From Psilocybe cubensis (taxonomy: Eukaryota): 64,000 bases of DNA. The stretch covers positions 1,054,001 to 1,118,000 of the forward strand of contig CM039007.1 in assembly GCA_017499595.2 (NCBI GenBank), read 5' to 3'. Within the stretch, counting starts at the first letter, position 1, and each line of letters begins with the position of its first letter. Below the pieces are notes generated by a model. That model had not been told where the DNA came from. It was given only the letters and a program-made list of their open reading frames with translations, and searched no databases. Position numbers and translations under genes: made by a program. Positions 629 to 38,148 of this stretch are shown here, one piece after another.

Positions 629-800
629 CAAATACAACCACAACAATCACCATCCTTGCATCCTTGATCATGTTCCGGCCAAACTTTTCGGGCGCGCAAT
701 GTCGTATCTATGAAGGCTCACCAAATTCAAAATTTCATTGAACTTCAGTCCGTTCCTCAATAATCTCAAAGACAATGAACAAAAAGTTCATTCAAATATG

Positions 801-3490
801 CTATTGCTCTAAATTCATCCTCGATGTTCGGAATAATTCAACCATCCCAATAGGAATCAAATCGTGATCCACCACCTCCAGACCACCAAAACTATCAATG
901 ATGGCGCCTCCATACACGCTGAGAATCCATTTCTCGTACCAATCCATCGAATCCCATTCCAAGTCCCTGGAGTTGTCCCGCATGGCCTCCCTGATCTTTG
1001 GCATAAGGGTTATGCGTCTTGGATTAGGAGAGCATAGCATCTCCCTGTATGTCTCACCCCATCTGGATAACCAAGATTCCCTCAAAGACATATACTCATC
1101 AAATGACATAAATGCGACTTTCGTAGGACCGACTCTTGAGTCCCGCCTTTCTTTGCTAGCCTCATACTCACTCCTATCACCGTCAGCTTGTTTTTTGAAC
1201 AAATCCTCGGGTGACGCGTTGGTCTTTCCGTTTGATGCCAGAGGTCGCCCAAACTTCTCCAAACCTAGGACATCGAGTGCCACGTTACGCAGCCCCAGTC
1301 CACCTCTCGCAATGGGGAAATAAAAATACCCATCAGGCATGTCTTTAATGTCAAAGCGGTCTTCAATGGTTTTCTTCAGATATCCAACCGCTCCTCCATC
1401 GGTACCCTCGTATTTTGGAAATAGCTCCGTCTGAATACGACCCATGGTTTCGATCAAATCGTTGATGTGCGCATCGGTAAAACAATTTGCAGGAATACCT
1501 CCAAAATTTCTCAAGAATGAGGCGACATATTTGTTGTAGGCATTGATCCAACCGAATACGGATTTCGAACCCGCAAGCTGGCGTTTCGTCTCGGCGATAT
1601 GACGGTTAACATCCTCCTGATCAATAACAAATCGACCAGTGTTTGGGTCAAATTTTAGGAAACCCCAGCGGACATCTCCTTCAGGCAGCCTAACGTGGTC
1701 ATCCGTCAGTGTCCCCACGAAGGTGGAACCAGTTTTCTTCTTGTTGAATTTGAGCCCAGCAAGATCGGCATACGTGTTCATCTCTGCCCACCCGTCAGCC
1801 ACCTTCTTCGCATCCGAATCCCATATCCAGAGGTCGTCGTGCATTCTGTACAGGTGCAGGCCTCCAGCCCTCTGATTGACCGCCAAATCCATGACAAAAA
1901 GGACTGCCTCTCCAAAAACAACGCTCATGGCATACGCAATTGGCGTACCGCGTTTGCGGATGCGAGACTGGGTATCTTCTGGAAAACGCAGCGGCGTGGC
2001 TAGGAAAGCACGGAAGAAATTGAGCCAGGGTGTAGGGAAGCCTAAGAACTCGAGCACGGTGAAGATTGTGTCGTGCGGCAGAGAAGGCCCGAACCACTCC
2101 AAATCTGAACGGACAATACAGTGACTACCGTGCAGAGTTTTGTTCAAGTAGCAATCTGTGGTCATGACATGTAGTAGCTTGCGCTTGACTGTTGCAGGTG
2201 AGGCCATGTTTTCGTCTTCGTCATCACCTTCTGGAGCATCCACCAAGTCATCGTAGCTCGATGGGATGCTGACTTCGTCCTGCAACCGATTGAGGAAGAA
2301 GTATTGTCTCCGATTATCATCCCTTGCGCTATTGACGGAAAAGGATCCGTCCCCGTCCTGTAGTTGCATAGACCAACGTTTTGAATTCGCAGGCGTTGGT
2401 TGACCAGGACGCGCCCAAGCTTTACTGTCAAAGACATCGAATAATCGTATCTTCATCTCGACTTGCCATGCCACTGCTATATGCTGAAGGAACAGTGCGT
2501 CGATAATCTCTGGGTCGGTGAAGCCCCTGACAAGATTGGTAAATATCAGATTTATGCATTTGCCTTTGGGAGTTACGCTTACCGATATTTTCCATGAAGG
2601 TGACGGCGAAACTCGACAACCATCGGCTCCTTTGGCCAGCACCAGGAGCCTAGGTTGCTCAGCCGCATGTTGAGGACGCTGGCCAACTCCTTCATCACTG
2701 TACCATTCCCCTTGAACGCCTTTAGCACGTCTCTGTTTTCCTCGTCCATCAATCCAGATGACAACAAGCCTTGGATAGCATAGCCCACATCCGCGGTTGT
2801 GATGGGCTTTCTTTGCAGAGCATATCCAAAATTGGCAAAATTGTTCCTCAACCTTTCCAATGCGGCTGCTCCCTCCGCCGAATCAAATAGCCCTTCCAAG
2901 TAATCATGCAATTTGTCGGTGTCGATGGGATAGTCTTCGAAAATGACAGACTCAAGTTTCTCCTTCTCCGCACGCAGATCCGTCCGCCCAACATCCACAA
3001 AGCTCATCGCATCCGAGTCAAAGGTCTCCTCTTCCACTCCGGATTGATAGGTCAAAGCCGCAGAGTCTCCGCTAGATATCCACTCATTAAACAGGTTCCC
3101 AAACAGCTTTGCAGCGTTGAAACGTAGGGTATTGTGGTGCATGTGGTCCTCAAGCGTTTGTGCCCATCCTCGTGCAACGTCGATATTGAAGCTAGGATCC
3201 CTTTCTGCCTGGTGGATCCAAAAATCAAGGTCTGAGAGCTGAAGCTTGCCGCCAATACTGTCAAGCCTGCTAACTGCACCGGACCCTGTCCAAGATTCAA
3301 CGGCTTTGGCAAGAACCTTAACTTGACCAAGAATGTCCCCCTTTTCCGCCAACGCTTTTGAGTCGTCTATGACCTTGATATGCGCCTGGTATGCGAGACG
3401 TTGTTTCTCAAGCTCGGCGAGTTTGATGTCCGTTATGAAGCTTATTGTCCTTCCGAAGGATGATTTCCCGATGTTGGATGGTTTGGACAT
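801..3490 (-). CDS. rvt: rvt-type cellular reverse transcriptase-related protein, about 877 aa, 2 exons (3490-2583, 2526-801)
   Basis: The 303-aa and 613-aa ORFs join in frame across a 56-nt GTAAGC...CAG intron (2582-2527), giving GKYR-GFTDPEIIDALFLQHI. N-terminal coiled coil ITDIKLAELEKQR. RT motifs IVRSDLEWFGPSLPH (catalytic Asp), KRGTPIAYAMSVVFGE, LYRMHDDLWIW (HDD in place of YxDD), GLKFNKKKTGS and VRWGFL. No gag, protease, RNase H, integrase or endonuclease. Confidence 0.88.
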
Positions 3491-17095: not shown

Positions 17096-19155
17096 ATGGC
17101 AGTAGCATTAGTCACTTTGTCGTTTATATGCGCAGGTCTGCTCGCGGTGTTCGTCCCAGTCAAGAGGGTTCGCACAAGTATACCTCATCTCGCAATCATT
17201 GTATGGCTCCTTGGGCACAATCTCATTCATGCGATTAACGCAGCCGTGTGGGCTGGAAATGTTGATATACACGTTCCAATATGGTGCGATATAGGTAAGT
17301 AATACGTTGGATCTATGCGGAGCACGAACACAGCTAATCAACATCCGGCAGTTACGAAGGTTCTCTTGGGCATCAAGGTCGCATTGCCTGGCGCGTTGGT
17401 GTGCATAGCATGTCAACTGGAGCTTTCTTCGTCGCAGAGGACAATCCTGAAGGATAGAAGAGTTTTACGAAACCGTATGATTTTTGAACTATTTCTTTGC
17501 TATGTTCTTCCTACATTATATATGCTATTGCGTGAGTGCTTTCTACCCTTTCTTCTCCCTGTTTCTAACTGATGGCTCTACCCTAGACCTCGTCATCCAA
17601 GATCGCAGGTTTGATCTTGTCAGAGACTATGGATGCTCAGCCTCTTCCCATCCTTCAACTTTCGCTTTTCTAATAACTTGGCTTCCACCTCTCGTTATAT
17701 GTAGCATAGCCCTTATCATATCTGGTGAGTTCCGCCTCATTTGTGCAAATGTATGTTTTCTGACCCTAAGTACAGGTGTATCCATTCACAATTCTGGCCG
17801 CGTCGTCGGAATGAGTTTATCAAAGCATCTAGAAACGCGCTCGACGATGACTGCCTCGCAATTTAATCGCCAGCTTATCATCTGCATGACCATGGCCGGA
17901 TCTCTTGTTCTGCTCAACCTATCAACCCTGTTTTCTATACACTCCTTCGAACCATGGACGTCCTGGAGTTCAGTCCACGCTTTCATGACGAAGATTGAAA
18001 TCATCAAAAATTCATCGGACGTCAAGACGGTTCAGTTTTTGTGGTGGTCGATGTTCGCGATATCTGTTCTCTACATCATTCTGCTGTTTGCCATTGCTGA
18101 GGATGGACGTGATCTCTACCGGTGGGTTAGGGAGCAGGCCACTCGCAAACGCAAGTTCCCTCGTCGCCTCGAGCTACCTCTCTAGTAAGTCCTACCATTC
18201 CATAGCTGTGTTATTATATACTTATACTTCGACACCAAGCCTCAAGAGAAAGCCATCTCTTCCTGCGCCCGAGATGATTTCACGCTCTCCATCTTTGACC
18301 AAATCTCATATGCGGCCTCTTACCATCGAACTCAAATCGGGCTGGGAGGATGACCTATTGGATGACAAGAAATCCAAGCGCAGAGGACCTCGAGAAGACG
18401 TGAAACCTCCATCGTTTTCCTCGAGGCCATCCGAGGGCGTTTTCCATGACGTGGAAGCTCAAAGTCTTTCAGAAGATAAGCCAAGACCCGATTCCCCTTT
18501 AATTTGTGCTAGTCCAACGATGAGTTGTCGTTCGATCTCAGAAGACGACCAAATGTTCATGGAATCGACGATATCGTATCTCAGCTCTCCCACGGCAAAG
18601 ACGCTCGGTATTCTCCCTCCTCTGCAAATCCCACCTCCCGCGAAAGCCCCTCCCCCACCATTGGCAATAGAGATTCCGCAGAGAGCTGTCACGCCTCCGC
18701 CTGCGCTTAAGCCGAAGTCCATTCTCAAGGCACCCCGATCCCCACCTTCCAAACCGGTGCCGACGGACATCGACGAACCTATCAACTCAGTCTTCGACGC
18801 GGCCTGGCCTGTTCCTCCCCTCTCTCCTGTCCCTACGATGGCCTTCTCCACGAAGCGCGCCCCCCGCCCGCGTTCTCGGTCACACTCGCCTGCTTCTGCT
18901 GCGCAGGAAGTTGGGTATCCTTTATGTCAAACATCAACTCCTCCTCACAGAAGAGCCCGCCCCTTTGAAGGTTCGAGCATCTCGTCCGTTGACTCGGAAA
19001 TCATCCCATCACCCCTATCACCAACTTCAAGGAAGGCAGCGCACAGACAAACAGGAGTATATGGGCTGCGTAAAGTCTGGAGCAAGGAACGCCTTGGTCA
19101 GGGTTCTCCGGCCTCTCAAGCTATCCATATGACTGTTGTAAAGGAGATCGCATAA
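17096..19155 (+). CDS. STE3-like pheromone receptor-like GPCR #1 with a long Pro/Ser-rich tail; probably a non-mating-type receptor
   Basis: AINAAVWAGNVDIHVPIWCDI, VIQDRRFDLVRDYGC and PWTSWSSVH match the STE3 family. It lacks the PLPWH motif of the other four receptors. Four GT-AG introns; spliced into a tail of about 300 aa ending at 19155. Confidence 0.85.
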
Positions 19156-20064
19156 ACTTGTGTCAGCATACCTTCCCCATGTTTCACCGTGCTAGGATAC
19201 TTAGACTCTTTCCGCTCTGACGACCTCTTATGATGCGAATGGATTCTTCGCCGTTCAACCCCCTTCGCCTCTTCACACTCCCTTACCTTTTAACTTTAAA
19301 CCCACACCCCCTACTTCCCTCTCCGATGTATTTATCATTCCTGTGTTTGTCGCCTTAGGCTTCGTGTAGCATAGATACCACTTTGTAGCTTAACCTTTGT
19401 TCGATAGCATGCATTTATATGCGATTTATGTTCGATTTACCAAGTTCCCGACACAGCTTTCAGAACACTGCCAGTGGGGCAAAGAAGCACGTAAGCGCGA
19501 GCGCTGATTGGCTCACCTTGCACTCGGGAATAACCGGCGCTCTCGAGCACTGCCACCTTGCGAGTATCGTTCAGATTTTCACCACTTTCCTTCACATTCT
19601 TACACACCCTTCATCAAGTCATCAATCACAGGACGGACAGATTGCTATGCTATACTCCACTTCACAGTCTTCACAGTTGTTTCTCATGGATGTCTTTCAC
19701 GGTTGACATTACGCGATGCCCGACAATTTTCACGGGTTTTTGACGACAATACCTATATTCGATTTGGAACTGTCGCTGTTTGCATCTATCGATCATCACT
19801 TTCGCAAGCAAACTGCCTGAGACGCTGCTGACTTCCATTGGCATGCATTGCCTTGTGGATGACTTGAGTTTTGTCACTGGATGTCATCAAGTCTGCAGTT
19901 ATGGGTGATTTTTCACTGTTGAATGTCTATTCTCCATCATGTTCTAATCAATCCATTAGGAAAGTTCCATCTAGGCTATGGTCATCATCTTAGAATAGCT
20001 TGCTCACTATGTTAAAAAGCACGACTTCAAGTTGTCATTCTCCATTGCGACAACCTCTATTCGA

Positions 20065-21629
20065 ATGTCTCGATTTCCATACGAATTGTGGCTACTCATC
20101 ATCTCTTATCTACTCGACCATGAAATATGGAATCTGTGTACTGTGAATAAGAGTATCCGTAACATTGCTATGAGCAGGCTTTACGAAAAAGTTGCCGTAT
20201 CTATGAAGGATGTAGATGTAAAGAAATATCGTCATCAATTTTTACGGCTCAGGTGCGACTATTGATTCTTCAGTTCATTTCCAGAATAACAAGGATTATG
20301 TAGTGAAGACGGCATAGCGCCACACGTACGCTACCTTTCGTTTGATCCCTACGCGCGATCCTACTTCCCTCCAGCAATTCAAACTTCGCGAAGAACTGTG
20401 CTTATCAAGAAACTGTTCTCGAACCTCCTGAATAGAGACGATGTTGATATCATTCATGCCATTGATAGATTCATCAATCTCCGGCATATTGAAATCCAAT
20501 ATCAATCTGTTCGGCCAATACCACTTACAAAATGTGGACCCCTTATCCGTGCGAGTCTTTTGTCGCATTCCACTCGCCTACAAACACTTAAATTTTCCTT
20601 TCCATTCGAATCTTTGATGACCTTCATACCATCGGATCTGTACCTTCCTCTTCTAACATCATTTTCAGTCACCTTATTTACGCTAACAGGCAACTTATCG
20701 GATGTAAACGAACATTTCGCATACACCGCCACCAAAGTATTGGTGCCCTTCATCAATCGACACCGTTTATCACTAAGTATATTGGTGCTAACCCTGGCGC
20801 CGCTGCCGCCAACATGGGATATGTATTCATTGAGCTTGGATACAACATTTAACCTCTTCCCACTCCTTATATCTCTCGACCACATCCCTAACCTTCGGTA
20901 TTTGACGATAGCCCTTTCGTCTTTTACATCAATCGACTCTACTTATCACTTTTTGGAGATGCATTCCTCTACTTTGAGACGGCTGAAGATCGATATGACA
21001 CATATGGAGCTCACTACAACGCATGGAGTTCTGGATCAATTTAAAGTCTCGTTACCGCTGCTCGAAGAGATTGTAGTCCAATACTACTATGATACGAAGT
21101 CCTTGACAACCTCCCCGTACCAAGAACCAACCTTGGGCTTTATTCGACAACATTCCTCGACATTAACCTCCTTGAAATTGTTAAACAGCTTCCACACTGA
21201 AGCGCATTTTCACGCGACTCCTGGGATGCTTTCCATCTTGTCCTCACGCCTTGAGAACCTTTATGAGCTCGACTTGCTGGTACGTCGGCTCAAAAGACGG
21301 CATACAAGCCCGGAAGAGATTAACGAAGAATACGAGGCAAGTCGGCCATTTTGCCTGTGTCTGCCATTGAGTACTGACCTGATGTGTAGTTCTGCTCCGA
21401 CATTCGTCATCACATATATCAGCATTGGAAACTCAGGCATCTAAAATTGGAGGTAAAGAGTGGCGGTCGCCGTACACGAACAAGGTACGGGAATGGGATA
21501 GTCGCTGTTGCAACAAGAATGCCTTTCCTGGAAACATTCAACGATATGCCGTTGGCAGAATATATGCGCGGAGCCAGACAGGCTGTGGATTTGATATTAG
21601 ACATGGCGGTTGATTGTCAACCTGCATAG
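20065..21629 (+). CDS. F-box/LRR-like protein, paralog 2; introns 20253-20303 and GC-AG 21337-21389
   Basis: FPYELWLLIISYLLDHEIWNLCTVNKSIRNIA F-box. Shares LVPFINRHRL and the terminal FC...W.L.HL exon with the other paralogs. Confidence 0.8.
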
Positions 21630-22050
21630 TTCAGACGATTCTCACATCGAATATATATATTAAATTGTTTTGCAGGTGTTACTTCACTCGTTTATTTTAC
21701 TGGAGTTGAATGTGTTGCTTGAATAAATTGAAGGTCATGCACATGCCTGGAAGACCTTTTCCTCGGCGACCTATTGACAGGTAATATTGTTGCGTATCCT
21801 TGACGTCGTTTCTCATTGCTCGATCATAGCCTTGGAGGTTGCAACATCTATTAATAGGTCCTCCTTATGGATTATCCGTGGCCTGTGTAGTGCACAGTTG
21901 CCACAGCTGTCAACAAGCCGCGCATAGCTATCCTTGTACAGCTATGCTAGGTCCGTTTGCAACGTCAATGCTCGGACTGGTGCGACGGACGATAAGAAAG
22001 ACCCCTCTATCCGAAAGTGTTGAAACTTTCTGTCGATCAACAACGCATAC

Positions 22051-23685
22051 ATGGGCAATCTTCCATACGAACTATGGCTGCATATCACCTCCTTTCTGAA
22101 TGATGAGGAAGTGTGGATGATGCGATCTCTTAACAGGACTGTGCGTGGAATTGTTTTGGACAGGCATTTCCGGAAGGTCTGCTTATCAATGCTAGATGTA
22201 TACTCCAGGGAATACCGCAGTCGATTTTCGCGGTTCAGGTGAGTTTCTTCGCCGTGCATTTATTTTGGTTCCAATAACTGATAATATTCAAGCAATAGTA
22301 ATATATCGACACGTGTGCGCGAGCTACACGTTTGCACCGTTGTGCCCGCTACCTCGAAAATTGCAAAGCCGGCATCGTCTCGAGAGAAGATACTTTCATT
22401 CCTCAGTCAATCATGGCGTAATATTGTAAAGAGCGACAGGGACGCGGTTTCTGAAACCCTTCAGACCTTCACGGAACTCAGACACGTGGTGCTGAAATTT
22501 GACTTGATTCAAGCGATGGATCTCTCGAAGACCACGCGCCTTTTGCAGAACTGCTTGCTTCCTTCAACAAATCATCTAAATTCTCTCGAAATGTCGTTTC
22601 CTATCGAATTGATTGGGAAAACTATACCACCGGCTCTCTTATTGCCTCATCTCAAATCTTTTACTGTGACTTTATTCACTCATAGGAGCGCTGCAGAAGC
22701 TGAGAGACTCTTCACCACGACGGCTACGACAACACTGGTGCCATTCATTAACCGGCATCGCTTTACTTTGACCACTTTAAACCTATGGCTCTATCCCTTG
22801 GCCCCCTCTTTATATACGCTTCGACCAGTAACACCTACAAATTTCAATCTCTCGCCATTGTTTACATCACTAGGACATTTCCCGCACTTGGAAATATTGT
22901 CAATCAGCATTTCGGCATCTACAACCTTGGGATATATTTCTCGCCTGCTCAAATGCACCTCACTACTTTAATACACCTAAGCGTCATCATTGGTGATTCA
23001 AAAACGACATCGACTCGAGGACTTTTAGACCAATTCGATGTGCCGATGCCAAAGCTTGAGGACTTTCTTCTTCGATGTCAGTACGACACCTCTGCACTTG
23101 CATCTTCTTCATACCAAAAATCCACCTTGCAATCTACCCATCAGCAAGTGTCTTCGTTGGTCTCCATGAAACTGCGCAACGTCTTGCATAACAGAGAAGA
23201 CTTTCTCACCATTTTCGATCCAGCTGTGTCTTATCACAAACTTAAATATTTGCACATGTCACTTCAGATTCTTACTCCGGATATGTTGGACATTTTTGCT
23301 CTTCACTTGCACAATCTTCACGGGCTTTACATCCTTGTCAGGTTTCTCAAATGTCGTCACAAAGGAAATTTGATCATCAATGAACAGGAAGAGAACGAAG
23401 TGAGTCGATGATGATTTGCCTTTGGCTGATCAAATGATTAACGAAGTTTGATTTTAGTTCTGTACCATAATAAAGCGGCATGACTACAGCAGCTGGAGTC
23501 TCAAGCATCTGATATTGATAGTGGGAGATGACTCACGGACCAACTATATCTCTAACGGGGAGGCAGCTGTTGCAGAGGTCATGTCTTTGGAAACATTTAA
23601 CGGCATGCCATGGGCAAGGTTTATTAAGTATGCACGACGAGATGCAGTACCGCAGTATAACTATACAGTGCCCTGGCTAATATAA
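22051..23685 (+). pseudogene. F-box/LRR-like paralog 3 with a 1-nt frameshift near 22951
   Basis: LPYELWLHITSFLNDEEVW F-box. Reads ctg ctc aa atg cac where paralog 4 has ttt ttc gag atg cat, so the homology jumps from ORF 22315-22971 to ORF 22785-23411. Could also be a sequencing error. Confidence 0.7.
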
Positions 23686-24570
23686 TAGATAATTCAGCAC
23701 ATTCCAGAATTTTTGTGAACCCCACCCTAGCAATGCATCACCAACATACATCGTCCCATCACAATTTGCACGCTTGGCATGTTCTCTGCTGTCAGTGACA
23801 TGAGTCCCAGCAGCTGCCGGACTTTGAGCCCATTTCCCTCAATTTTTTACACATACTAATTACCTGCCCCGTCAATCTGTGATGTGGTGGAGGGAGGGGT
23901 GTGCGCGTGATCCAAAGCTTGATCTAAAAACGACTCTTTTATTGTTGTATTGTCGACGTGCCAGTGTAGCCTTGCTCCAACATTCGTCTTCACAACTATT
24001 GGCAGCATTAGATACTTTCAAAATACTGTATTATCATTGCTGGCAACATTCAACATTATGGACAAACTGTAGATTTGTGTTCTCGAACATGGCCGTTGAA
24101 TATAGCCTGAAATGATGTAACACTGCATCTGCCAGGTGTGACTGCGTTTATTTGTTTTCCTGGAGATCAACACATCGTTTGACAGATTAAAGGTAGACCC
24201 TGCGACGACCAGATAAGTTTCGAACATTATTTTGCAGTAACCGTTCCTCGGCACGCTCAAGACTTGTAATATACAAACGAATATCCTTGGTGTCTGTCTG
24301 TGCGTGGGTCTGTGTGGGTATCGAGCTACCTTTCCAGTCCTCAAGTCATTGCCTTCAAGTTGATGTTGCAAGTGATCTAAAAATACTAGGCTCCTCTTTA
24401 TCAATTTGTTCACAGCCTATGTAGAGTACGACGGTTGAAGCACCTGTCAAACCTCCATGTACAGTTGTACAAGGTATACCTGCAACATCAATCCACGGAC
24501 TATATCATGGACTGGTGCCACAGCCCATCTATCCGCAACAACGTTGCAATATTCCGCCATCCACACCTAC

Positions 24571-26153
24571 ATGGTCAACCTTCCATACGAACTATGGCTC
24601 CATGTCAGTTTCTATCTGACTGAGGAGGAAATATGGGAGATACGAAATCTTAACAGGATTCTACGTAGCATTGCTTTTGATAGATGCGGTTTCAAAATAT
24701 CTGTATCGATGCAAGATATATACTCTAGAAAATACCGCCATCGGTTTTCGCTGTTGAGGTGAGTGTCTCTGCCACGTATTCAAATTTGTTCCATGGATTG
24801 ATTATACACCACCGAAAGACCAAGAGCGCCATGCGTGTACGAGCTAGAGGTTCTCAGTGTTGCCCCTAAAATCGCAAAAACGGCGTCATCTCGAGAGAAC
24901 GTACTTTCCATCCTCGGTAAATCCTGCCGAAATCTAGTGAAGAGCGACAGGGACGCGGTATCCAATACCCTTTTGACCTTCACTGAAGTCAGACATGCAG
25001 TGTTGGAATTTGACTTCTTTCAGGAAATATCTTTCAGCAAACTCGTGCGCCTTTTGCAAAACTGCTTACTTCCTTCAGCAAATTGTCTAAAGTCGCTCGA
25101 GATATCATATCCTATGGATTTCATCGCGCAAACTCTATCAACGACTCTTTTTTTCCCTCACCTGGAATCGTTTACTGTGACATTGTTCACTCATTACAAA
25201 GCTGTCCTAGCTGAGAGACTTAGGATCTTCAATACGACGGCTGCACCGGCACTAGTGTCATTCATTAATCGACATCGACTGACGTTGACCACTTTGAAGA
25301 TGTGGTTTCTACCCTTCCGCAAGTCAACGGGTAACTTTGGAAGGTCAATTTCTACAAATTTCAAACTGTCGCGGCTGTTTGCCTTACTAGAGCACATCCC
25401 AAAACTGAACACGCTGTCAATCAGCATTGCAGGATCTACCAATGTGGAATGTATCTTTCGCTTTTTCGAGATGCATTTGACAACTCTCGCAAATCTGACC
25501 ATTGTTATGGATCGTATAATCCCCAATTCAACACAAGGATTTTTTCAGTTTGAACTATCCTTTCCCAAGCTCGAAGATTATCAAAGATCCACCCCGGAAT
25601 GTGAACTCCAAAAAGTGTCTTCCCTGGTATCCATCGAGCTACGCAACTCCATGCACACTGAAGAAGAATTTCTCACCATCTTCAATCCGGCAGTGTCTTA
25701 TCACAAACTCAAAGACTTGCGGATATCACTCAAGATTCTTACTCTGGACATATTGGATATTTTTTCTCTTCACCTTCCCAACCTTCACAGCCTTGAGCTC
25801 GATGTTGAATTTCTTAGATCTCGGTTCAAAGGATATGCGACGATCGATGAACGGGAAGAAAACGAAGTGAGCTTGGATCCTTTGTTTTTCTCTGATAAAA
25901 TGATTGATGATGGTTGATTTAGTTTTGCACAGGCATAAAACAGCGCGACTATAGCCGCTGGAGTCTCAAACATATGATATTGATAGTAGGAGATGAACCA
26001 CGGGGAAGTTATATCTCTAACGGGACAGCAGCTGTCGCTGAGGTTATGTCTTCTTTGGAAACATTTAACGACATGCCATGGGAAAGGTTTATTCAGCATG
26101 CAAGACAAGTTGCAGTTCCACAATACCACTATGTAACAAGATGGGTAATGTAA
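24571..26153 (+). CDS. F-box/LRR-like protein, paralog 4
   Basis: LPYELWLHVSFYLTEEEIW F-box, the same two intron positions as its paralogs, and close similarity to paralog 3 (IVKSDRDAVS, PAVSYHKLK). Open to TAA at 26153. Confidence 0.82.
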
Positions 26154-27798
26154 CAGCAGATTTCAATTAAACTGCGCTACAGAAAGTCCCAGAATTCGAC
26201 CAGTGAAATTTATTATTGAAACGAAGCGGTTGACATTCAGTAATCGACCCGAAGAGCATGGGAGGCTGAGACTAAAGCTGGACAAGCAAGGTGCTCAAGA
26301 CACAAATAACACATCTTCCTGCGCCTTTACTGAGTGACGGCCGGGACATTTGGCCAGCAAAAATGAAAATAAAGCCGATTGGTACCGTCCAAATTGTAAC
26401 ACAAAGAGTTTGTATCTTTGTCTGATGGAGGCGTTCCAATGTTTACTGTCATATTCCGCTGGGAGATTCAAATATTTCTAAACTTTTCTCAATTGTTCAA
26501 CACATATTCACTCTATTAGCTTTAAAATTGGCACGCCTCCAGTACGGAATATTACCTTTTTAAATATCAAATCCAAGTACATATCTCAAGCGGTTGAAGC
26601 AGAGGAGCGTTTCAGCGACAACAAGTTCCCCAAATCAGAGAAATTCAAATCCTTTCGCCGCACGTAGTCATAGTGGCGATTCAAGGACAGACAGCAAACC
26701 ATCAGAATAATTAGTTATGACGTCGATGATCTAAAAATAATTCTTCTATTGTTTTTTTTGAAGCGCGTGATGGTGATCTGATTACATAGGCGTGGGAACC
26801 ATCCTCGATGCGGCCAAAAGACAATAAGGAGGGCTGGACGACATTCAATAAGAACAATAGCTATGGCTGGACAGAGCATTCCCCTCCTTTCTTCGACCTA
26901 CTATGACTGGATAACGCACATTCGAATCTCAGAGGATGTCCTACGCGAAGAGGCCCATAACTTGACTTAAAAGCGAATCTAGGAGGATGGTCATGGAGCT
27001 CTGGGCGTTTTAGAGTTGAAAGGGACGGGTACGGGCATATGGTGCGTTAGATAGGCAACATTTACTTGTTCTACTCTCAAGGGCTTTCTTGAAACAGGCT
27101 TTGGAAGCTTTGCCACTTGAATTGGGTTTCAAGCTAATTCGTTATCTTCCATCGACTGGGCCTCTTCACCATACTATCTACCGAAAATCAATTCATTTCC
27201 ACCACCTATTTCTCTCAATGTCATTTCATCTGTTATCATAGCATACTTTTGCGATGCGCCTTTTGGATTTGGCCTTGTTCTCATTCCAGAAACCGCAACT
27301 TCCCCAGGACTAGAATTCACTTCACGTGATGATATCCACACTAGCTGGACATCCGCATTTGGGCGTTCCTTTGTGATACCCCGCTTCATACACCGTGTTC
27401 CTATGATTCGCGCCGCCGAACGACACATTCTCCCACCATCGCGCTCCGTCCGTGCTATTTCGGCCCCCTTGCTTGACATCGTGACGCTATGGAACAAAGC
27501 AACGTCCGAAAAGGGATGTCGCTTTTGCTTATGTGAGATGGCTCTTTTGGGTGAAGGGACAAGGTCACATCCATACTGGGACAAGAAAATGTGAAGCTTC
27601 GAAGGGACTCTCAGGACAAGGAACAACCCAAACGCGTACAGGGAGGGATGTCGAGAGCAATTGCTCTTATACTGGACGAGGTGTCATTTTTTATCACCGC
27701 CTCCAGTTGATCTACCTTCGTGTACTCGAACGTTGTCGTCTCGGGCGCCCCTCCGCACACACTCCCCGACAGCGATACCACCCCATCTGTAGATCAGT

Positions 27799-29361
27799 AT
27801 GACTTACCCAAACGGCATCTTTTCCGCCTTCGCCTTTATTGGCTTCCTCATGTGCAGCATTCCCCTCCCATGGCATCTAGAAGGTACACACTCTTCTTCA
27901 ATCTACTTTCGACGATCACATTACTTATATCCATCGTTTTATTAGCCTGGAACACAGGAACCTGTCTGTACATGGTGTGGACTGGTCTGTCTTGCCTCAA
28001 CCAGTTTGTCAACTCCGTCGTATGGAATGACAACGCAATCAATTGGTCTCCAACTTGGTGTGATATCTGTAAGTCCTCGAGGATTTTGTTTATCTTCGAA
28101 TTGCTTATCACTGTGTATTGTAGCATCGCGGTTCATCGTCGGCAGCGCCGTCGCCATTCCCGCAGCATCGTTGTGCATCAATCGTCGCTTGTATCACATC
28201 TCTTCAGTGAGGTCTGTGACTATCTCTAAGGCTGAGAAACGCCGCGACGTCATGGTCGATCTTTCCATCGGCCTCGGTATCCCTCTGGTAGAGATGATTC
28301 TCCGTATGTTGTTTTACCTGTTCTCTATCGATTTGTTTCTAATCGACTCTACAGAATATATCGTTCAGGGTCATCGATTCAATATCTACGAAAACGTTGG
28401 TTGCTACCCCTTCACATACAACACTTGGCCTGCCTACGTTCTTGTCTACTGCCCACCCATTGTGATTGGCATCATTTCCGGTATCTATGCCATCCTCAGC
28501 ATCATTCAATTCAACAAAAGCCGATCCCAGTTCAACGACCTTCTCTCTGGCCACAGCAACCTGACCTCCAGCCGATACGTTCGTCTGATGTGTCTCGCCG
28601 GTGTCGAAGTTCTTTGCACTGTCCCCATCGGTGTATATGCTCTTTCTCTCAACATCAGAACTGGCATCCAACCATGGATCAGCTGGGCCGACACTCACTA
28701 CGCCTTCTCTCGCGTCGATCAATTTCCCGCTGTCCTCTGGCGCTCTACCTCGGTCGGCGAGTCCTCGCTCGAGCTCTCTCGCTGGCTCGTCGTCGTCTGT
28801 GCTATCGTCTTCTTCGCCTTCTTTGGATTCGCCGACGAGGCTAAGAAGAACTACCGCTCCTACATGCAGTCTGTCGCCAAGCGCGTCGGTATCTCCACCG
28901 GCTCATTTGGCAGCAGCAGCGGCGCTTTCAGCTCGACCGGCTCGAAATCGAAAGTCATGGGTTCCAATGGCAAAGTCCGCCCTGTGCTCCCTACTTTTGT
29001 CCACCAGGACTTCCTCCGCCGCCACGACTCGATCGACTCATTCACAGACGTCTCATCAGCCTCGCTGCGCGACGTCAGCGGCCACCTCAACGAGAAGGGC
29101 GACCCGGAGAAACAGGAGGAATTCAACCCTACCCTTTCCTATAGCGGCCTCACTCTCTCTGATGTCGGCGGAACACTCAACGACTGCTCCGCACCACCCT
29201 ACTCTCCCGCTCCTTCTCTAGGCGCATCGTCCTCTGCATCCTCATTGACTGTGCCTGAGCCCGCACGCACTCGCTCCAATTCCAACGCCTCCACACCGTC
29301 TTCGCAGGTGCCCATCCTCTCAGATTCAAAATCAAAATCGAATACACCAGATATCGTCTGA
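27799..29361 (+). CDS. STE3: STE3-type pheromone receptor #2
   Basis: MTYPNGIFSAFAFIGFLMCSIPLPWHLE-AWNTGTCLYMVW, NSVVWNDNAINWSPTWCDI, AIPAASLCINRRLY, YIVQGHRFNIYENVGC, RYVRLMCLA, PWISWADTH and FFAFFGFADEAKKNY. Three introns. Confidence 0.95.
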
Positions 29362-30629
29362 GATGGATTCATGTGCCCTGCTTTATTCGTTCTTTCATAC
29401 CCCACTGTATCATTATTAGTTAACTCTCAACACCCACTGTAGCTATAGCGTCTTATCTTTCTCTCTCTTTTTCTTGGTTATTCTCCTCGCATTGAAAACC
29501 CTACTCCATATTTACAGGCTCGTTCGCATTTTAGTAATAGCGAGGTTCATAGATGTACACTCTTATAGAAGAGTTTACACCCACAAAATCAAACCACAGT
29601 TTAACCATCTATGTTTTGGCGTGAACATCATTAAGCCTTGGAACAATTGGATTAAAATAGACTTGGCCATTGACTGTTCTATTGTTGGTCGTTGAACTTT
29701 GTGGGTGACCCAGTTGTTTGGAGAGGCGGTATGGGTGCCATTATACCATTGTGCGATAGCCATTTGCTGGAAGTTGAAAGATTCGGATTTTCCTGATTTG
29801 TGTACTGCTTGGTACCGTCTTCCATGTTTGTATCCCGGGTCACACTACACTTTGACCTACATCGCTATTGTAGTGCCACTTTCAGTCCTGATAGCATAAT
29901 AGGCCAGCTTCGATACACATATTCAGATGGAAAGGTATACTATTTTCTTCCAATCCTTGCGTAGGTATTATTGTGTTGTTTCCATGTTCATAAGAGGAAA
30001 TTGAATCCCAACAGAACTTGCAGAGTGGCGAGTCAAGCACGGAAAGGGTCGAGTGCCCACAACCACTCGATCATTCTCCAATCACCTTCTCTATGATCTA
30101 AATCCAATTGTCATGTATATTATATTATTCCAGGATGCTCGATTATGAATGTGCCATTCCATTTTAATTGTTGGATGGTTCGTAGAACGTTCGAGGACGT
30201 GCTATCCATAGCTGAGTACATTCGAGTCATGGACAGAGGTGGAAATGTGTCTGACTCGTACAAGAATTTTGTGACAATTCAACAGAGGAAATTTGAAGTA
30301 CAATCAATGGTTTAAATTTGTGATAATATGACGATTTTTAATGATACAATTTGAATAATTTAATCAGCCTCAGAGGTCGGAACGATGTGTGAGATGAGAG
30401 GCAGAAGAAGCATGGGAGAAATCGAGTCGCCCACAAGAACCAATAAGAACGAATGTGGTATAGTGCTTAGGCACGTATTTGAAGAATAATTAAAGATGCA
30501 GATGGTATCTGAGTTGAAGACTTCGTGATTATTGATAGCTGACCTTTCATGTACAACATAAGCGCCCATGATCAAGTAGTTCCATAGCGTAAATAAACGT
30601 ACCGAGTTACAGAGACTATATTTGCGGCT

Positions 30630-30767
30630 CTATGCGACTGTGCAGAAGCCAGCGAAGCCAATTCGAGTGTCGGCGCTCGTCAACTCTTTCATCGAGTCGT
30701 CTGATTTGTTCCTGTCCACGGTCGGTATGGTAAACGGTGGGGAGGTATATTCTTTGAATACGTCCAT
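30630..30767 (-). CDS. Lipopeptide pheromone precursor A, 45 aa (not in the ORF track)
   Basis: Translates as MDVFKEYTSPPFTIPTVDRNKSDDSMKELTSADTRIGFAGFCTVA*. MDxF start and CaaX (CTVA). The mature region nearly matches precursor C. Confidence 0.9.
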   Translation of the reverse strand: MDVFKEYTSPPFTIPTVDRNKSDDSMKELTSADTRIGFAGFCTVA

Positions 30768-31582
30768 TTCACGGGAGGTAAAAGCTGATTTGAGATTAAA
30801 TTTTAGATTGGTTTACAGGAAGGTTTGCAGGAAATGAGGGGAAATTACAGCATATGTCGATTGAGATTATACCGTTCAAATAGCTCATCCTTTTCCCGAT
30901 GTGGGTTTTGGACAGGCCTATGCGACAGGATAGCAATTCTGGCGCTAATTGTTTCATCGAGCGGTTATTTCGATGACTGGTTAGAGCAGAGTGGCGACCA
31001 ACAATCCGATATGGGTGGTTTACCCTTCACGTCTACCTGTCTTAGCCGCCGGACAAAAAACACATACAGGTATTTGGAATGCAGGGCCAATGTCGGTATG
31101 CGTTGCAAGTGCCGCTGCCCAAGAACTAGTTCTCTGGAGAGCTGGGCCTTCATTACGTTGTTCCGAACGATGCCCATGCTTGACATTCAAGTTAAAGCCA
31201 ACTGGGTTAGCCTCAGGCAGGCTCCCCAGACCTAGTCGAGCAGAGGAACGGCATTTATCATGAAGTTTTCCGTCGTGATCGTGATCATGTCGCCAAAAAT
31301 ATGTCTTATATTACAAAATATTTACAAGTACATTCAAAGGTCTGGATAATAAGAACGAATGAGGGATCCTACTGACTGGAATGAACGAAAGACAACACGG
31401 TCTCATGTGGAGGTTGACAGTTGTTAAGTTACAGGGTTTTCTTGAATGCTGAAGTAAATAGAGACGAAATATTCTATTATGCTCTATTCGATGAATAAAT
31501 CGTCAGCATCAAAGTATTTCATCCTTAACTCGAGGCAGCTCTCACCCTGTGAAAGAGTTCCAGAGTATGACATAGTAATCGA

Positions 31583-31729
31583 CTAGGCGATTACACAAAA
31601 CCATGTTGGTCCACCTCCACTAGCTTTTATTCGGACCTCGTAGTCGGCAAAAGCCTGCCCCTCTTCCTCATGATTGGTTGAGAATTGGGGGGATATATCA
31701 GAGGGTGAGAAGGAAGTGAATGTATCCAT
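31583..31729 (-). CDS. Lipopeptide pheromone precursor B, 48 aa
   Basis: MDTFTSFSPSDISPQFSTNHEEEGQAFADYEVRIKASGGGPTWFCVIA*. MDxF start, acidic pro-region, CaaX CVIA. Confidence 0.92.
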   Translation of the reverse strand: MDTFTSFSPSDISPQFSTNHEEEGQAFADYEVRIKASGGGPTWFCVIA

Positions 31730-33269
31730 GTTGGAGAATTCGTAGATGTTCGAATTTATTTGAATGTAAGGTTGTGGGTATATTGAGTCTGTGAAGAAAA
31801 ACAACACCACTTTATGAAGTTCATGAGTACAATTACTGCTTTTAAATTGATTTGCCGAGCTATTATAATTGTCCTGTCGTCGCGCAATCGAACCCGATAC
31901 ACTGTTTCCAAGCTAATTTTTGACTATTGTAATGAGTATTTCATTATATTTGAGGCCATAGTTTTATTATCGTCGTTTTTCCAAAGTAAGAAATGACCAC
32001 AGCTATCTAATTGAGCAGAGAGTAGGCCCGTGCAAGGTCCAAGCGAGATGCACCAGGATTACATATGAGCTTTCCTAACACGGCTGAATCCTGGGATTTA
32101 TCCCAGCTTTAATAACATTCCTACTAGGTAAGTTTAATTCCATAAACAGAACATAATCCGATCGCAAACGGACGCGCCAAGTACGCGCCGCAGGCTATTT
32201 GCTTTATCACGTGGTGGGAATTTCAGTTGGTTCACGATATGGACCAAGCCTAACTTCATCTTTATCCCTTCAACGTTCTTCAACGTCCAACGATCGAGAA
32301 ACGCATGAATCTCCTTCAGTGTCTGCAGCTTTAGCTTGAAAAAAATTTACCATGATGTTTTTGAGCTTTATGAACGCTCTAGCCTGGTATTATCATCTGT
32401 TAAATATAAATATCTACGAATGTCACCGTCAAATTGATCACAAAGTTGTCTTCAACTCTGGCAACACTGACTATCATTCCCGAGTTACAGTTTTCTAAGA
32501 AAGTGTTACCCTGGAGAAAAGACTGCTGGATAATTGGATAACCTCACTCTGAGGTGCGACAGAAGTAAATGATTCCAGATCAATTTCATAAAGTTGTGTT
32601 ACAGGTGATATATACACTACTGTACATAAGATTCTGTGGGTAATGCGGTATCGATGTGTTGGATATTGGTATTGATATAAGTCTGGTATGATGATAGAAG
32701 ACGAAAAAAAAAAGATGAGAGAAACTGAGAGGATGTACGAAATGAGCGAAGTTGAGTGTGTTGGATGAAGGGACGCTAGTTGAATATAAAGCGATGCAGA
32801 AAGATAATGCGTTACTGATAGCTTGGTGAGAACAGACGTTTTATAACGCCTGGTAGGCTCGGCATCGCGTGTAAATGAGTGTAGAAGTCGTCCGCGTGAG
32901 AAGGGCAGAAGATGATGGATGATATGTTGCGCAGAGAGGAATGGCCGATGTCGTTGGTAAATGAACTTGAGAGAGGACATTTGACTGAGGGCGAATGATG
33001 GTGACAGGCGCAATGAGATGTGTGGAAAGTAGAGAGTAGCGGTAACGAGTGAGGGGAGGAAAGGTCGGAATGTGTAGACAGAGGGAGGGAGGGGAGTATG
33101 CGAGCTAATGCCAGCGAATAACTGAATGATAAATACGAGCGAAACCACCGGTTCTAGAAACGATAGAATGGAACATTATGAGCCCATAATCTTAGAGGAA
33201 ATAAACACAGAAACTCACGAGATGATGGGAGGTATCGCAGGCAAAGGCGACCTTGCCTTGGTAGACGAC

Positions 33270-33464
33270 TTAGGCAATGACGCAGAATCCAGCAAAGCCA
33301 ACACGAGTGTCAGAGTTCACTAGATCCTCCATGCAGTCATCAGGCTCAGCTCTTTCATCTGAGTCTAAGAAGGATGGGCGGGACACCGACGCAGAGTCGT
33401 TCTGGTCTTGATGACCGGCGCCGGTCTCAAGAAACTCGAAGGTGAAGTTTGTGAATGAGTCCAT
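33270..33464 (-). CDS. Lipopeptide pheromone precursor C, 64 aa
   Basis: MDSFTNF...DDCMEDLVNSDTRVGFAGFCVIA*. CaaX CVIA. Confidence 0.92.
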   Translation of the reverse strand: MDSFTNFTFEFLETGAGHQDQNDSASVSRPSFLDSDERAEPDDCMEDLVNSDTRVGFAGFCVIA

Positions 33465-34358
33465 TGTAGCGGGTAGTATAAAGGATGTCGCTTGATAACG
33501 AAGAGTATGAGGTATCTCTGGGAGGAGAAGGCAAAGGTCGCTCAGAAGAACGGAGAGGTAAAGTGCAGAGATTCTTCGTTACGGAAATGTCCCCTGAACT
33601 TTTACTTTTAATAAGTTGACCGTGGGAGTTCTCATTGATGGATAAATTTGGAGAACAATCTGGGAACAATCAGCATTGTATTAGATTTGTTCTTCTGACT
33701 CGATTATAATACCAAGATAATACATATCGGTCCCTCCCAGTTTCCGATCTATGGAGGTTTACGTTCACCCTTGCAGAGCATTCCTTGGGGATTTAGATTC
33801 TGAAGTCCAGACCGATTTCCGTCAATGGTCCACCATGGGCGGTCGGCTATCGTCATCCAATAAACACCCGCGTTACGTACAATAATGCATTCAATATATT
33901 TTTTAAGGTTTGGCGTTGAAATATAACCAAATATAACAATGTATTCAGGCTCATTGTTCTTAAGTCACGTATCTGTGACCTCGATAATTTTTGTGGTAAT
34001 ATAAGTATTACCTGCCATGGGCAGGTATTCTGGAATAACATAATTATTTCATATAATCTAGTACACAGTAGTAGACACAAGTATTGCGACGAAGCCGCAT
34101 TTTCGAGTAAATGATTGCAGCCATTGCTGCCACAATATAGTGTTATACAGCTGTTCGAACCCGCGGGAGTCACGAGTGTTCGAGATGATGTGGAAGATAC
34201 CAGATTACGTAACATTTTCATCATCGTTTCCAAATGCCCATTGTTCAAATCTACATTGTTTACCCTGAGAGCCAATCCGACATTCCAATGATACAAAGAG
34301 CTCTTCATAGAGGGCATATGCCTTTTTCTTAACCCCACAGTACGTTACTGACTCTCAT

Positions 34359-35833
34359 ATGGACCCAACATACCCGATCTTCACCACCTGTGCTTTCATC
34401 GGATGCCTCCTGGTCCTCATCCCACTGCCATGGCATCTACAAGCTCTGAACGCTGGGACGTGTCTTTTCATGATATGGACAGCAATTGCATGCCTTAACC
34501 AGTTTGTCAACTCGATCATCTGGCATGGTAATGCGCTCGACAAAGCACCTCTATGGTGTGACATATGTACGCACTTTCAATGTCGTCTCTTGTTCGAACA
34601 CCTACAATTCATCTTTCCAGCTACTCGTCTCACAGTAGGAATATCTGTTGCTATACCAGCCGCTTCGTTATGTATAAATCGACGGCTATACAAAATTGCA
34701 AGCTGTCAGACTGCCACGATCACATACTCTCAGGTTAGTTACTTAATGAATTTCGTTATTTGGTATAACACGCTTCCTATCATAGAGGAGAAGAGCTGTT
34801 TTCATCGACCTAGCGATTGGACTTGGAATACCAGCACTGCAGATGGCCCTCCGTACGACACTAATGTCTATCATTTACTGTTTTTTTCTGACCTGTATCT
34901 ATAGAGTTCATCGTCCAGGGCCATCGATATGATATATGGGAAGATATAGGATGTCTCCCTACCACAGTCAACACCCCCGCTGCCTACCCTTTATCATTTA
35001 TATGGCCTAATGTTATAAGCCTTATTTCTGCTGTTTACTGCAGTACGTATAATCCTCTTTCTATAATTATGTCGATTTCCCTTGAACTAATGATCCTTCT
35101 GCATATTCCTTAGCATTGACTCTGAGGGCATTCTTGCTGCGCAGAGCCCAGTTCAACCACATCGTGGCTTCTAATACCTCTCTCACGGTCAATCGTTATT
35201 TTCGACTCATGTGCCTTGCAACGACAGAGATTCTTGTTACTATTCCAATATCGAGCTACGGAGTTTATCTGAACGCCACCTCTGCACCGATTTACCCTTG
35301 GAAAAGCTGGTCAGATATTCATTATGACTGGTACACTCCCAACATTTATCCTGCAGTAATATGGCGGATGAGTCGCAAAGCCATCATTATTTTGGAGCTC
35401 AATAGATGGTTGCTCGTCTTTTGTGCTTTCATGTTCTTCGCATTTTTTGGCTTTGCAGAGGAAGCTCTGAAAAACTACCGCAGCTTTTATTGCAGTGTTG
35501 TCACTGCCATTGGCGTACATGCTCCTGGAGATAAAGCTGCTATCGAGTGAGGTTTATATTCTTTCATACACGCTAAAGTCGCTGATTGTTGTCTGGCTTT
35601 CTAGCAAAAAAAGGTACATACTGCCGTTAAGACGCACAGCAGAAACTTCTGTATCCTCCCGACAATGCCCATTAGATTCAACAATAGCACGAAGTGACTC
35701 ATGTTACTCATCTACGTCAACAAAATACTCAGCTACACTTCAACCATCTCCTTGCACTCCTCCCTCCAAGTTCGACTTCGAGAAATTTGGAACTCCGATT
35801 CATGACCCGGCGTTTAATCAGTCCGCGAAGTAG
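34359..35833 (+). CDS. STE3: STE3-type pheromone receptor #3; introns 34567-34620, 34734-34785, 34853-34904, 35043-35113, 35547-35604
   Basis: MDPTYPIF...LIPLPWHLQALNAGTCLFMIW, APLWCDI, AIPAASLCINRRLY, NRYFRLMCLA, PWKSWSDIH and FFAFFGFAEEALKNY. Confidence 0.95.
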
Positions 35834-36093
35834 CTCGAAATGTATTGCTTATAATTATATCTCAGTATTCATCATTTTTTGAAGAAATTATCGTTGTACA
35901 TATTTGGATTTTCCGTCTAAGGGTAATGTCGTTTGCAATACATAGTATGGCAATCTTGCTACAGATGCATCGTTTCTTCCTTCATGTAACATTGATCGCC
36001 AGCTTTGTTAGTATAAACGTCAAATTTTAAGTAAGTCAAGTTCAATGATGAGTGCAGAATCATTTACGGATAAGATAAGATATAGTTCGCTCT

Positions 36094-37320
36094 AAGGCTC
36101 CAACCGTTTCATTTGTTTATCGTTTGTAAACGGTATATATCATTTCGTTTAGTTTACGAGCCTTGCTAAACAGTTTACAAACATTTATAAACGGTTCAAA
36201 CGGTAACATATTTTTGTGCTAAAGTATATCTCTTTTTTGGACAATGATGGGTGCGTATTACATCAAATGATTCATTTTTTATTCTTTACACCAAACTAAT
36301 AACTCATTTGCACTCTTGTTTTGGTACCATTTTTGTACCAATTAAGTGCCGACTATTATATTCCTTGGCAAATGGGCCGCATTAGGACAAGTGATGCGTT
36401 GAACGCTGTTGAACGCCTGCCCCTTGTAGCTACCCTCGAGCTTACTGTTTACAAACATTTATAAACGTTTGTAAACTGTGCTCGGATAGTTTGCTCTTTG
36501 AGATTGAAAGAGTTAGGTGAAGTATAAAAGAAGAACAGAATATCCGCAGGTCACGTATATTCCGTGGGTGCGTAGGGCTTGGGCGGGTGGTCGGGAGCGA
36601 CCGAAGCATAGTCACGAGAAGTGACCGAGAACGAAACGAAACACGCAAACGCGCGGGTCGTGAAGAAACGAAAAGCGAGGAGATTGAATGGCCGCCAAAG
36701 GCCCTGAGCGCTTGGATTGAACCACTTGGAAATCCCAAACGAGAACCAACGGTGGCAGTACCAAACACTGGGAAAAAGGAGAAAAGGGAGAGGAGGGTGG
36801 GGTCGAAATTTGAAAAGTGGAGCGAGGAGAAAGGACGAGTGAAGCTGAACGAGTTTGAGGGCGAGCCGAGAAGGAGAGGGAAGAAAACGAGGCATGAAGT
36901 ATTATATAGGTGTACCTGTATATTGAATCTACAAGAAGAGCTTCGAGAAAACATGACAGGTGAGACCTGACGAGTGTCAGACTCAGGAACAGGAAGTACT
37001 GGAGAAGATCATTAAAACAGAAACGTGAAGAAGATGATCACAAACGAGCAATGACAATCCTCACTGATCCAAATTCCTATCGTGGTTTTTTATTAAAATG
37101 CTTGTAATCTGTAAAAAGTATCTGAAAAATTTGCGGTAACGTGCGTCCGAGACATAGCTTTAATGTACAAATCCAAGACTAAGACCTGAAGGAGAGAGAA
37201 AAAGGAGAGAAAATTGTAAGAAAAAAACTCAGATTCTGCCAGGCATCGCTTCGGCTCCGGGTCTTTTCAGACCTGGTAGATTGTTCCTGAAAACAGCCTT
37301 AAAACAGTGAAAAGCGAAAA
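36094..37320. mobile_element. Possible degenerate DNA transposon / MITE-like remnant
   Basis: Repeated gtttacaaacatttataaacg (about 36172 and 36447), the second forming a near-palindrome. Short inverted aaggctc...gagcctt. Followed by purine-rich, low-complexity sequence unlike the surrounding genes. No transposase recognised. Confidence 0.35.
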
Positions 37321-38148
37321 TCATAAATGCTAATATCAGTCTGAATGCAACCTGTCAGAACGATCAACGTGGACTCCATGGCGGAAAGAGTAAAACAATC
37401 ATGCGTCTTCCATTCATACTTGCACATTCTCAACACTTCGACTGTCCATGGGTTATGCACACCCTTTAGCACATATTACAGTCGCTATCTTAAACTGAGG
37501 CCCCGAATCTCCACATATGGGCATGTCCGCCTATGACCCTGCTTTCAACTCTCAATTCTTTGATAATTGCGTCTGAAATCTGTGAAACTGGACAATGCAC
37601 TAAGGGCGCCTCTCAATCGGATAGCTTTTCCACCCTGCAGGGCACTTATATTCGGATTGCACGCCTTCTGTGCCCTCCGCGAGAAATGGACAATGTGAAT
37701 GAAATAACAACTTCTGGGCCTCAGATCTGCCCAAACCTGGGTATGTGTATAGAGGTGCTTTAAAATTATTTTACATCAATTCCTCTGCTCTCCTATGCAT
37801 CAACGTCGGCCATTATCGAGTCATTGTGCCGAAGACATGGTATGGATCTCAAGTAATCTCAAGCGAACGGAAATAACGAGAAATTGCAGTAGAAATGGAA
37901 TGAATTCGTCGAATAGTAGCACTACGCTAGCAAATGCATACAATAGCATAATATATAACAAAAGGCATAATCTAAGGAATCGATTAGAATCTTCAACCTT
38001 TAATGCATAAAATTATTGAAAATCATACGATAGTCGTTTTCATTGACCGGCATGAGGATTGATGTAACAAGCAGAGATATCAGATCTTACAGAGAGTTAG
38101 CATCTCGTCCTATAGCAGATGACGAAAGTAAGGATGTACCTTATGTTG

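Follow-up and report, generated by a model that had tools for sequence, protein, structure and literature searches.

Is the gene with reverse-transcriptase (RT) motifs on the minus strand at positions 801-3490 one that Psilocybe cubensis keeps for its own use, or is it what remains of a retrotransposon? The question is raised by a stretch of 64,000 nucleotides (assembly GCA_017499595.2, contig CM039007.1, positions 1,054,001 to 1,118,000 of the forward strand), which was analysed as a whole and is called the window below. A sequence-only reading had taken the locus for an intact, intron-containing rvt gene beside the B mating-type locus. The rvt genes are said to be reverse-transcriptase-related cellular genes, described by Gladyshev and Arkhipova in 2011, of which RVT of Neurospora crassa is reportedly the studied eukaryotic member. 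The analysis leads to the answer that 801-3490 is, with high confidence, an intact host gene of the rvt family, which is equal to UG37 of the UG/Abi reverse transcriptases. The gene is an ordinary member of a large, already described fungal family.

UG37 'corresponds to rvt elements', as stated in a passage of Mestre et al. (2022, PMC9226505). In that paper, rvt genes are described as single-copy genes that do not belong to retrotransposons, whose products carry an N-terminal coiled coil mediating multimerisation and carry out protein-primed synthesis. The same paper places them in eukaryotes and a few bacteria. The rvt traits are described also in PMC5718144. A literature search for newer work on UG37 or rvt brought up nothing beyond PMC9226505.

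The assignment is carried by profile searches. The PADLOC model RT_UG37 (PDLC03776) matched the whole protein of 877 amino acids at E 1.4e-57 (193 bits), while the next-best PADLOC RT models (UG17, UG19 and Drt9) reached E values of 2e-4 to 8e-4 only. The match was collinear over the protein and went beyond the RT core. Exon 1 alone aligned with profile positions 7-234 of 778 (E 2.7e-10), the RT core with positions of about 389-655 (E 2.3e-41), and the last 158 residues with positions 732-768 (E 0.005). The rvt assignment of the sequence-only reading was thus borne out by the profile search along the full length, N-terminal exon included. The model was built from prokaryotic sequences and the P. 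cubensis gene is eukaryotic and intron-bearing; the protein is collinear along the 778-position model. Other members of the family behaved likewise: all eight that were tested, namely three Agaricales proteins, one from the ascomycete Lophium, one from the Ustilaginomycotina member Meira, and three metagenome loci, matched RT_UG37 at E 1e-54 to 1e-77. A phmmer search against 1.84 billion cluster representatives returned 1189 clusters at E<=1e-3, 858 at E<=1e-10, and 434 at E<=1e-30. Ten distant full-length members were examined, and the five named ones came from Dothideomycetes, Eurotiomycetes, Ustilaginomycotina, and Agaricomycetes.

General domain libraries are less informative. The sole match in a Pfam scan of the gene was RVT_1, at 26.7 bits and under the cut-off of 29.6. 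Therefore, the precomputed Pfam field of the public protein is empty and the gene remains a 'hypothetical protein'. The UG37 model names the gene at once where the Pfam thresholds miss the RT domain. NCBIfam gave just a group II intron RT match far under its threshold (16 bits against a cut-off of 300).

One of the metagenome homologs, at locus L046 (positions 3962-6514, GC content 0.33), deserves mention. It encodes an intronless rvt homolog of 850 amino acids, 28% identical to the P. cubensis protein, which matches RT_UG37 at E 6.8e-77. It adjoins a fragment of an SK potassium channel and a TPR/ADP-ribosyltransferase protein. A bacterial origin had been suspected for this low-GC locus, but with the SK-channel neighbour it looks eukaryotic; its source is probably a low-GC eukaryote rather than a bacterium, and it does not serve as a comparison with bacteria. 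A pattern search of genome contigs used fungal-specific patterns and has no bearing on bacterial rvt; 17 stretches matched and none was confirmed.

The gene model is exact. On the minus strand, an upstream frame of 308 codons (2579-3505), whose first ATG at 3490 is the rvt start, is followed in a different phase by a downstream frame of 693 codons (801-2882). Joining the two exons (Table 1) yields 2634 nt and 877 amino acids with a single terminal stop; without splicing, stops are met directly past residue 303. The spliced ORF (open reading frame) of about 877 amino acids, as proposed from the sequence, was recovered by computing the join. Residue for residue, its product is identical to a public NCBI/UniRef protein of 877 amino acids (P0003), 'hypothetical protein JR316_0010625 [Psilocybe cubensis]'. 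The sequence-only reading had expected automated tools to mislabel the gene as a transposon fragment or as two hypothetical proteins. This did not happen, as the public model is already whole, a single unnamed 'hypothetical protein'. The GC content of the gene is 0.49, inside the range of the window.

Comparison with relatives supports the intron. The alignment used comprised 32 full-length Agaricales relatives. The splice join restores G300, K301, Y302, and R303, which are invariant in the 32 sequences. Two annotated homologs, P0021 and P0048, carry insertions exactly at this GKYR junction, suggestive of read-through of an intron. The intron site is covered in 70 of 79 related metagenome loci: 58 are continuous, and 12 break at or within a few residues of residue 303 with a change of frame. 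By script, nine of these 12 were found to contain one canonical intron (GT..AG, 47-56 nt) that restores the conserved junction. The same intron was seen by eye in L010 and L012, which are identical there, and a donor only in L020. As near-duplicates occur among the interrupted loci, fewer than 12 of them are independent. A branch-like motif (CTGAT) lies about 20 nt ahead of the 3' end of the intron in the window. As the intron is present in 12 and absent from 58 of 70 loci, either the family has undergone its gain or loss, or some metagenome contigs derive from RNA. The loci without the intron include close relatives on long genomic contigs, i.e., L004 (62.5 kb), L005 (23 kb), and L009 (29 kb). 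For the intron that had been proposed at 2527-2582, comparative support was obtained (12 of 70 loci, same codon and phase) and RNA support was not.

The RT motifs quoted in the sequence-only reading are all present (RSDLEWFGPSL at residues 442-452, RGTP at 495-498, RMHDD at 530-534). Its claim that the three catalytic aspartates are kept, i.e., D444, D533, and D534, holds in the protein and in all of the aligned relatives. Invariant in 32 of 32 sequences are likewise R491, R493, G496, P498, H532, K567, T568, and G569. An AlphaFold2 model built on that alignment has an RT-like fold, with a mean predicted local distance difference test score (pLDDT) of 83.8 and a predicted template modelling score of 0.82. 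Its N-terminal domain of about 300 residues is all-helical (11-37, 40-49, 53-66, 85-97, 103-140 and more), and its C-terminal domain is helical as well. The acidic loop ahead of the motif-3 strand, with no predicted secondary structure and with pLDDT below 50 at 396-409, varies among the aligned sequences and contains gaps; it may correspond to the 'loop 2a' of rvt proteins. An N-terminal coiled coil had also been proposed. What stands is only a long predicted helix, 11-37, which is conserved and sits in an all-helical domain homologous to the UG37 N-terminus; the coiled coil itself is putative. A complex prediction with two copies of residues 1-300 gave a score of 0.00, which weighs neither for nor against multimerisation.

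Known structures place the protein among RTs in general. A Foldseek search of the PDB returned R2, LINE-1 ORF2p, Prp8, a group II intron RT, and DRT9 at E 5e-11 to 4e-7. Identity was 10-15% and template modelling (TM) scores were 0.3-0.57, both low; therefore, the matches reflect the common RT fold and nothing closer. R2, LINE-1 ORF2p, and Prp8, the top matches (E 5e-11 to 1e-7), share the right-hand RT fold. In contrast, their identity is 10-12% and their TM scores are 0.3-0.4, and the P. cubensis gene is without endonuclease or other element parts. By sequence, the sole solved relative, and the nearest solved structure, was 9ioa_A (E 0.087), whose sequence set includes 9vma, titled DRT9 hexamer; the PADLOC Drt9 match is weak too (E 5e-4 to 8e-4). 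The similarity to DRT9 and AbiK is marginal and restricted to the palm (residues 186-267 of exon 2), whereas the N- and C-terminal domains differ. To our knowledge, no defence role is known for rvt, unlike DRT9 and AbiK. Both rvt and AbiK are reported, in a passage of PMC9226505, to be primed by protein and to synthesise without a template, and the defence prediction for UG37 was inconclusive in the same paper.

The evidence on the nature of the gene as a host gene comes from its surroundings, its relatives, and its alleles. No direct or inverted repeats longer than 28 nt were found in 1-7000, the longest being a 28-nt imperfect inverted pair upstream of a neighbouring ORF. None frames the gene, and no long terminal repeat (LTR) or terminal inverted repeat (TIR) was seen. 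Neither the gene nor the 30 largest neighbouring ORFs contain endonuclease, RNase H, integrase, or gag domains in Pfam. With tblastn, the protein finds the gene alone in the 64-kb window, without a second copy. The absence of transposon domains and terminal repeats claimed in the sequence-only reading is hence confirmed by three kinds of search (Pfam, repeat scan, tblastn of the window). In a collection of 5.8 billion sequences, the closest relative besides the gene's own product, among the matches listed, shows 56% identity in exon 2 and 61% along the whole protein. Alleles were compared on contigs of four public runs from two studies, with 40 of 98 differences listed. Five of these precede the start codon; the other 35 are coding and divide into 27 synonymous and 8 nonsynonymous changes, which gives a ratio of nonsynonymous to synonymous polymorphism (pN/pS) of about 0.08. 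The gene copy is under purifying selection, and the results are consistent with a constrained host gene.

In sum, the gene resembles rvt genes in its stand-alone organisation as a host gene of about 880 amino acids, with an N-terminal domain made of helices, an RT core in which all catalytic aspartates are kept, and a conserved C-terminal domain; the acidic disordered loop before motif 3 is a possible additional resemblance. The lack of transposon features, the purifying selection, and the spliceosomal intron are further common traits. What is described for other rvt proteins suggests what such a gene might do. In PMC10680173, non-templated polymerisation, stress induction, and a requirement for the catalytic residues are reported. 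Intact catalytic residues are described as needed to relieve the stress of amino-acid starvation or blocked translation. N. crassa RVT has terminal transferase activity and is up-regulated upon a block of protein synthesis (excerpts of PMC3520738). Other rvt genes are strongly induced by amino-acid starvation or blocked translation, according to extracts of meeting reports and of the UG/Abi paper. By analogy with N. crassa RVT and bacterial RVTs, the protein of 877 amino acids would multimerise through its helical N-terminus. The RT palm, with D444, D533, and D534, would then polymerise nucleotides without a template, and the polymerisation would probably be primed on the protein itself, as in other rvt proteins. 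As the P. cubensis protein lacks none of the conserved catalytic residues and has the complete domain layout, the same activity as in other rvt proteins would be expected for it.

Several points weigh against this reading of an intact rvt host gene with the activity of its family. The link to rvt runs through the UG37 profile and PMC9226505 rather than through the N. crassa protein itself, and the biochemistry is drawn entirely from other rvt proteins. The P. cubensis gene differs from rvt genes in lacking a perfect Gcn4/CPC1-type element (TGASTCA) in the 1 kb upstream (3491-4500); in the whole window the motif has 8 matches versus 12 expected by chance. It also differs in copy number. PMC9226505 and PMC10680173 describe rvt as single-copy, yet P. 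cubensis has at least two members and Galerina marginata at least six. The second P. cubensis protein, JR316_0010909 (901 amino acids), is encoded on the same 3.08-Mb contig and is 51% identical over exon 2, in line with at least two paralogs in this species at 51-54% identity. The P. cubensis copies are old paralogs, of which that of the window evolves faster. Among the matches listed, G. marginata has six members, and P. cyanescens, Gymnopilus dilepis, and Cyclocybe aegerita have two each. The copy number check proposed with the sequence-only reading accordingly had a mixed outcome: the window holds no dispersed copies, but the family is multi-copy in Agaricales. Furthermore, the rate of evolution of the gene is about double that of its sister. 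A quick maximum-likelihood tree was built from 32 rows picked from the 120 listed matches; its deep branching sorts the rows by fungal family, and its duplications fall inside the dark-spored agarics. One Galerina protein is sister to the window's copy (Shimodaira-Hasegawa-like approximate likelihood ratio test, 99), and the terminal branch of the window's copy is 0.58 versus 0.27 for this sister. JR316_0010909 pairs closely with a P. cyanescens protein, and there is no close ortholog of the window's copy among the P. cyanescens matches listed. The window's copy also departs at 16 of 225 highly conserved columns, versus 0-5 departures in its 8 closest tree relatives (P0004, P0006, P0007, P0011, P0015, P0019, P0021, P0029); in other rows, departures reach up to 27.

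The remaining points against it concern transcripts. None of the public runs containing the gene is recorded as RNA, and the support for the sense splice is comparative. The sole junction seen is the joint 2537->2599, in one contig each of runs X1 and X2, which would frameshift the sense frame. The two runs belong to one study and their kind is only guessed as RNA (two of five runs). Parts of the gene region without cover in X1 and X2 (601-1016, 2993-3200, 3617-3700) were not taken as evidence. Of the 61 nt skipped, 44 nt belong to the sense intron. On the minus strand, canonical ends are not obtained wherever the cut is placed. Contigs of X3 and X4, both of the size of genomic DNA runs, continue across 2537-2599 without a break. 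A natural antisense transcript that is spliced is the best guess for the junction, the alternative being an allele with a 61-bp deletion; that such an allele is dead is opposed by the differences in the X1 and X2 contigs, which are mostly synonymous.

The rival explanations differ in how much of this they use. That the gene is a retrotransposon-derived RT, i.e., a decayed or solo ORF of a LINE-like (long interspersed nuclear element) or LTR element and not a host gene, could be argued from the generic RVT_1 as sole Pfam match, from R2 and LINE-1 ORF2p as best structural matches, and from the several family copies per genome in Agaricales. Each of these arguments has its answer. RVT_1 is under threshold, whereas RT_UG37 reaches its 193 bits along the full length including the non-RT N-terminus; the structural matches, with their low identity and TM scores, reflect the shared RT fold only; and the paralogs are just 51-61% identical, with the deeper forks of the tree sorting rows by fungal family. 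The missing element domains, LTR, TIR, and second copy in the window, the low pN/pS, and a spliceosomal intron at a site common to relatives also speak against this origin, which is regarded as extremely improbable. Equally hard to credit is a functional tie of the gene to the B mating-type locus, e.g., through a mating-related role in a non-recombining mating haplotype. The window does contain five STE3-type receptor genes and a pheromone-precursor ORF, and this cluster looks like a B mating-type region. The alleles of the rvt gene are moreover divergent (24/695 nt in X1, 28/817 nt in X2, and 24/1274 nt in X4, figures without a genome-wide baseline), which may reflect linkage to the mating-type region. 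However, the nearest STE3 ORF is about 14 kb off, several unrelated ORFs lie between, including a GMC-oxidoreductase fragment, and nothing was found to tie the gene functionally to the receptor cluster. Of the location 'beside the B mating-type locus' given in the sequence-only reading, the presence of the cluster in the window can be retained, but not the immediate neighbourhood. A literature search on the mating type of P. cubensis brought up one genome paper, which is unrelated.

A rival closer to the preferred reading accepts the rvt family and questions the function: the window's copy would be a paralog with a lost or changed enzymatic role, either a decaying duplicate or a regulator, silent in sense and covered by antisense. 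The long terminal branch, the lack of a close ortholog among the P. cyanescens matches listed, and the 16 departures at conserved columns fit with such a role, as does the fact that the sole junction in the possibly-RNA contigs is antisense with no sense-spliced contig among them. On the other hand, the frame is open over 877 codons with every invariant catalytic residue kept, and the synonymous differences between alleles outnumber the nonsynonymous ones (27 versus 8). Contigs can attest presence but not absence, and that X1 and X2 are RNA is a guess. The 16 departures are for the most part conservative (such as L>I, E>D, R>K, T>S, I>V); therefore, the window's copy is a somewhat faster paralog, not a decaying one. 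A lost or changed role is considered very unlikely. A bolder scenario, which also has to be called unlikely, combines the copy number with the junction. Here, rvt would be a diversifying family in dark-spored Agaricales, with this copy kept off in sense by the spliced antisense transcript until stress or infection, and the paralogs would be protein-primed polymerases, immune-like and inducible. The reading as an intact rvt host gene is retained for the locus.

Regarding the surroundings, the allelic divergence was recorded in region 2167-3606, and two haplotypes occur within single runs. Directly upstream of the start codon (3525-3531), the alleles differ by indels of 5 and 25 nt. A pair of ORFs on the plus strand at 4454-6017 has an F-box-like N-terminal stretch by eye; the ORF at 4788-6017 has no Pfam match at E<=1e-3. 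Another plus-strand ORF, 10416-10931, matches only the C-terminal part of a GMC oxidoreductase (PF05199, E 1.2e-8) and is probably one exon of a larger gene at about 8.6-10.9 kb. A tblastx comparison of the window flanks (1-800 and 3600-16000) with the 79 metagenome loci gave no matches and is uninformative on synteny.

Table 1. Positions of the rvt gene parts, the antisense-polarity junction, and the mating-type-like cluster within the 64,000-nt window
Feature	Position	Strand	Remarks
Exon 1 of rvt gene	3490..2583	-	Residues 1-302 and first two bases of codon 303; all-helical N-terminal domain
Sense intron	2582..2527	-	56 nt, phase 2, GT..AG ends; GTAAGC donor, CAG acceptor
Exon 2	2526..801	-	Last base of codon 303 to residue 877; RT fingers and palm, conserved C-terminal domain
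Stop codon of rvt gene	803-801	-	Ends exon 2
Acidic disordered loop, residues 380-412	2199..2297	-	11 D/E of 33; just upstream of motif-3 strand
D444 codon, catalytic Asp of RT motif 3 (A), in SDLEWFGPS	2103..2105	-	Invariant 32/32; predicted strand 438-445
D533 and D534 codons, catalytic pair of RT motif 5 (C), in HDD	1833..1838	-	Invariant 32/32; hairpin between strands 529-531 and 534-539
Junction of antisense polarity, 61 nt skipped	2539..2599	+	GT..AG on + strand; joint 2537->2599
B mating-type-like cluster (five STE3-type receptor genes, one pheromone-precursor ORF)	17481..43840		Pfam
STE3 matches	17481-18185, 27946-29361, 34311-34904, 42974-43840; 39473-40661 (-)		Pfam STE3
Pheromone-precursor ORF	41517-41999	-	Pfam Pheromone

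Few RT relatives are retained by cells for purposes of their own; the rvt enzymes belong to these, and little is understood so far of their cellular role. To this role, the P. cubensis copy adds little, being ordinary, intact, and already in public annotation, though unnamed. The presence of several rvt copies in Agaricales is of modest value, as it runs counter to the description of these genes as single-copy. A possible spliced antisense transcript over the sense intron could bear on the regulation of the rvt gene. If the scenario of a diversifying family were true, rvt paralogs would be comparable to the bacterial DRT/Abi relatives, rather than serving one housekeeping stress function.

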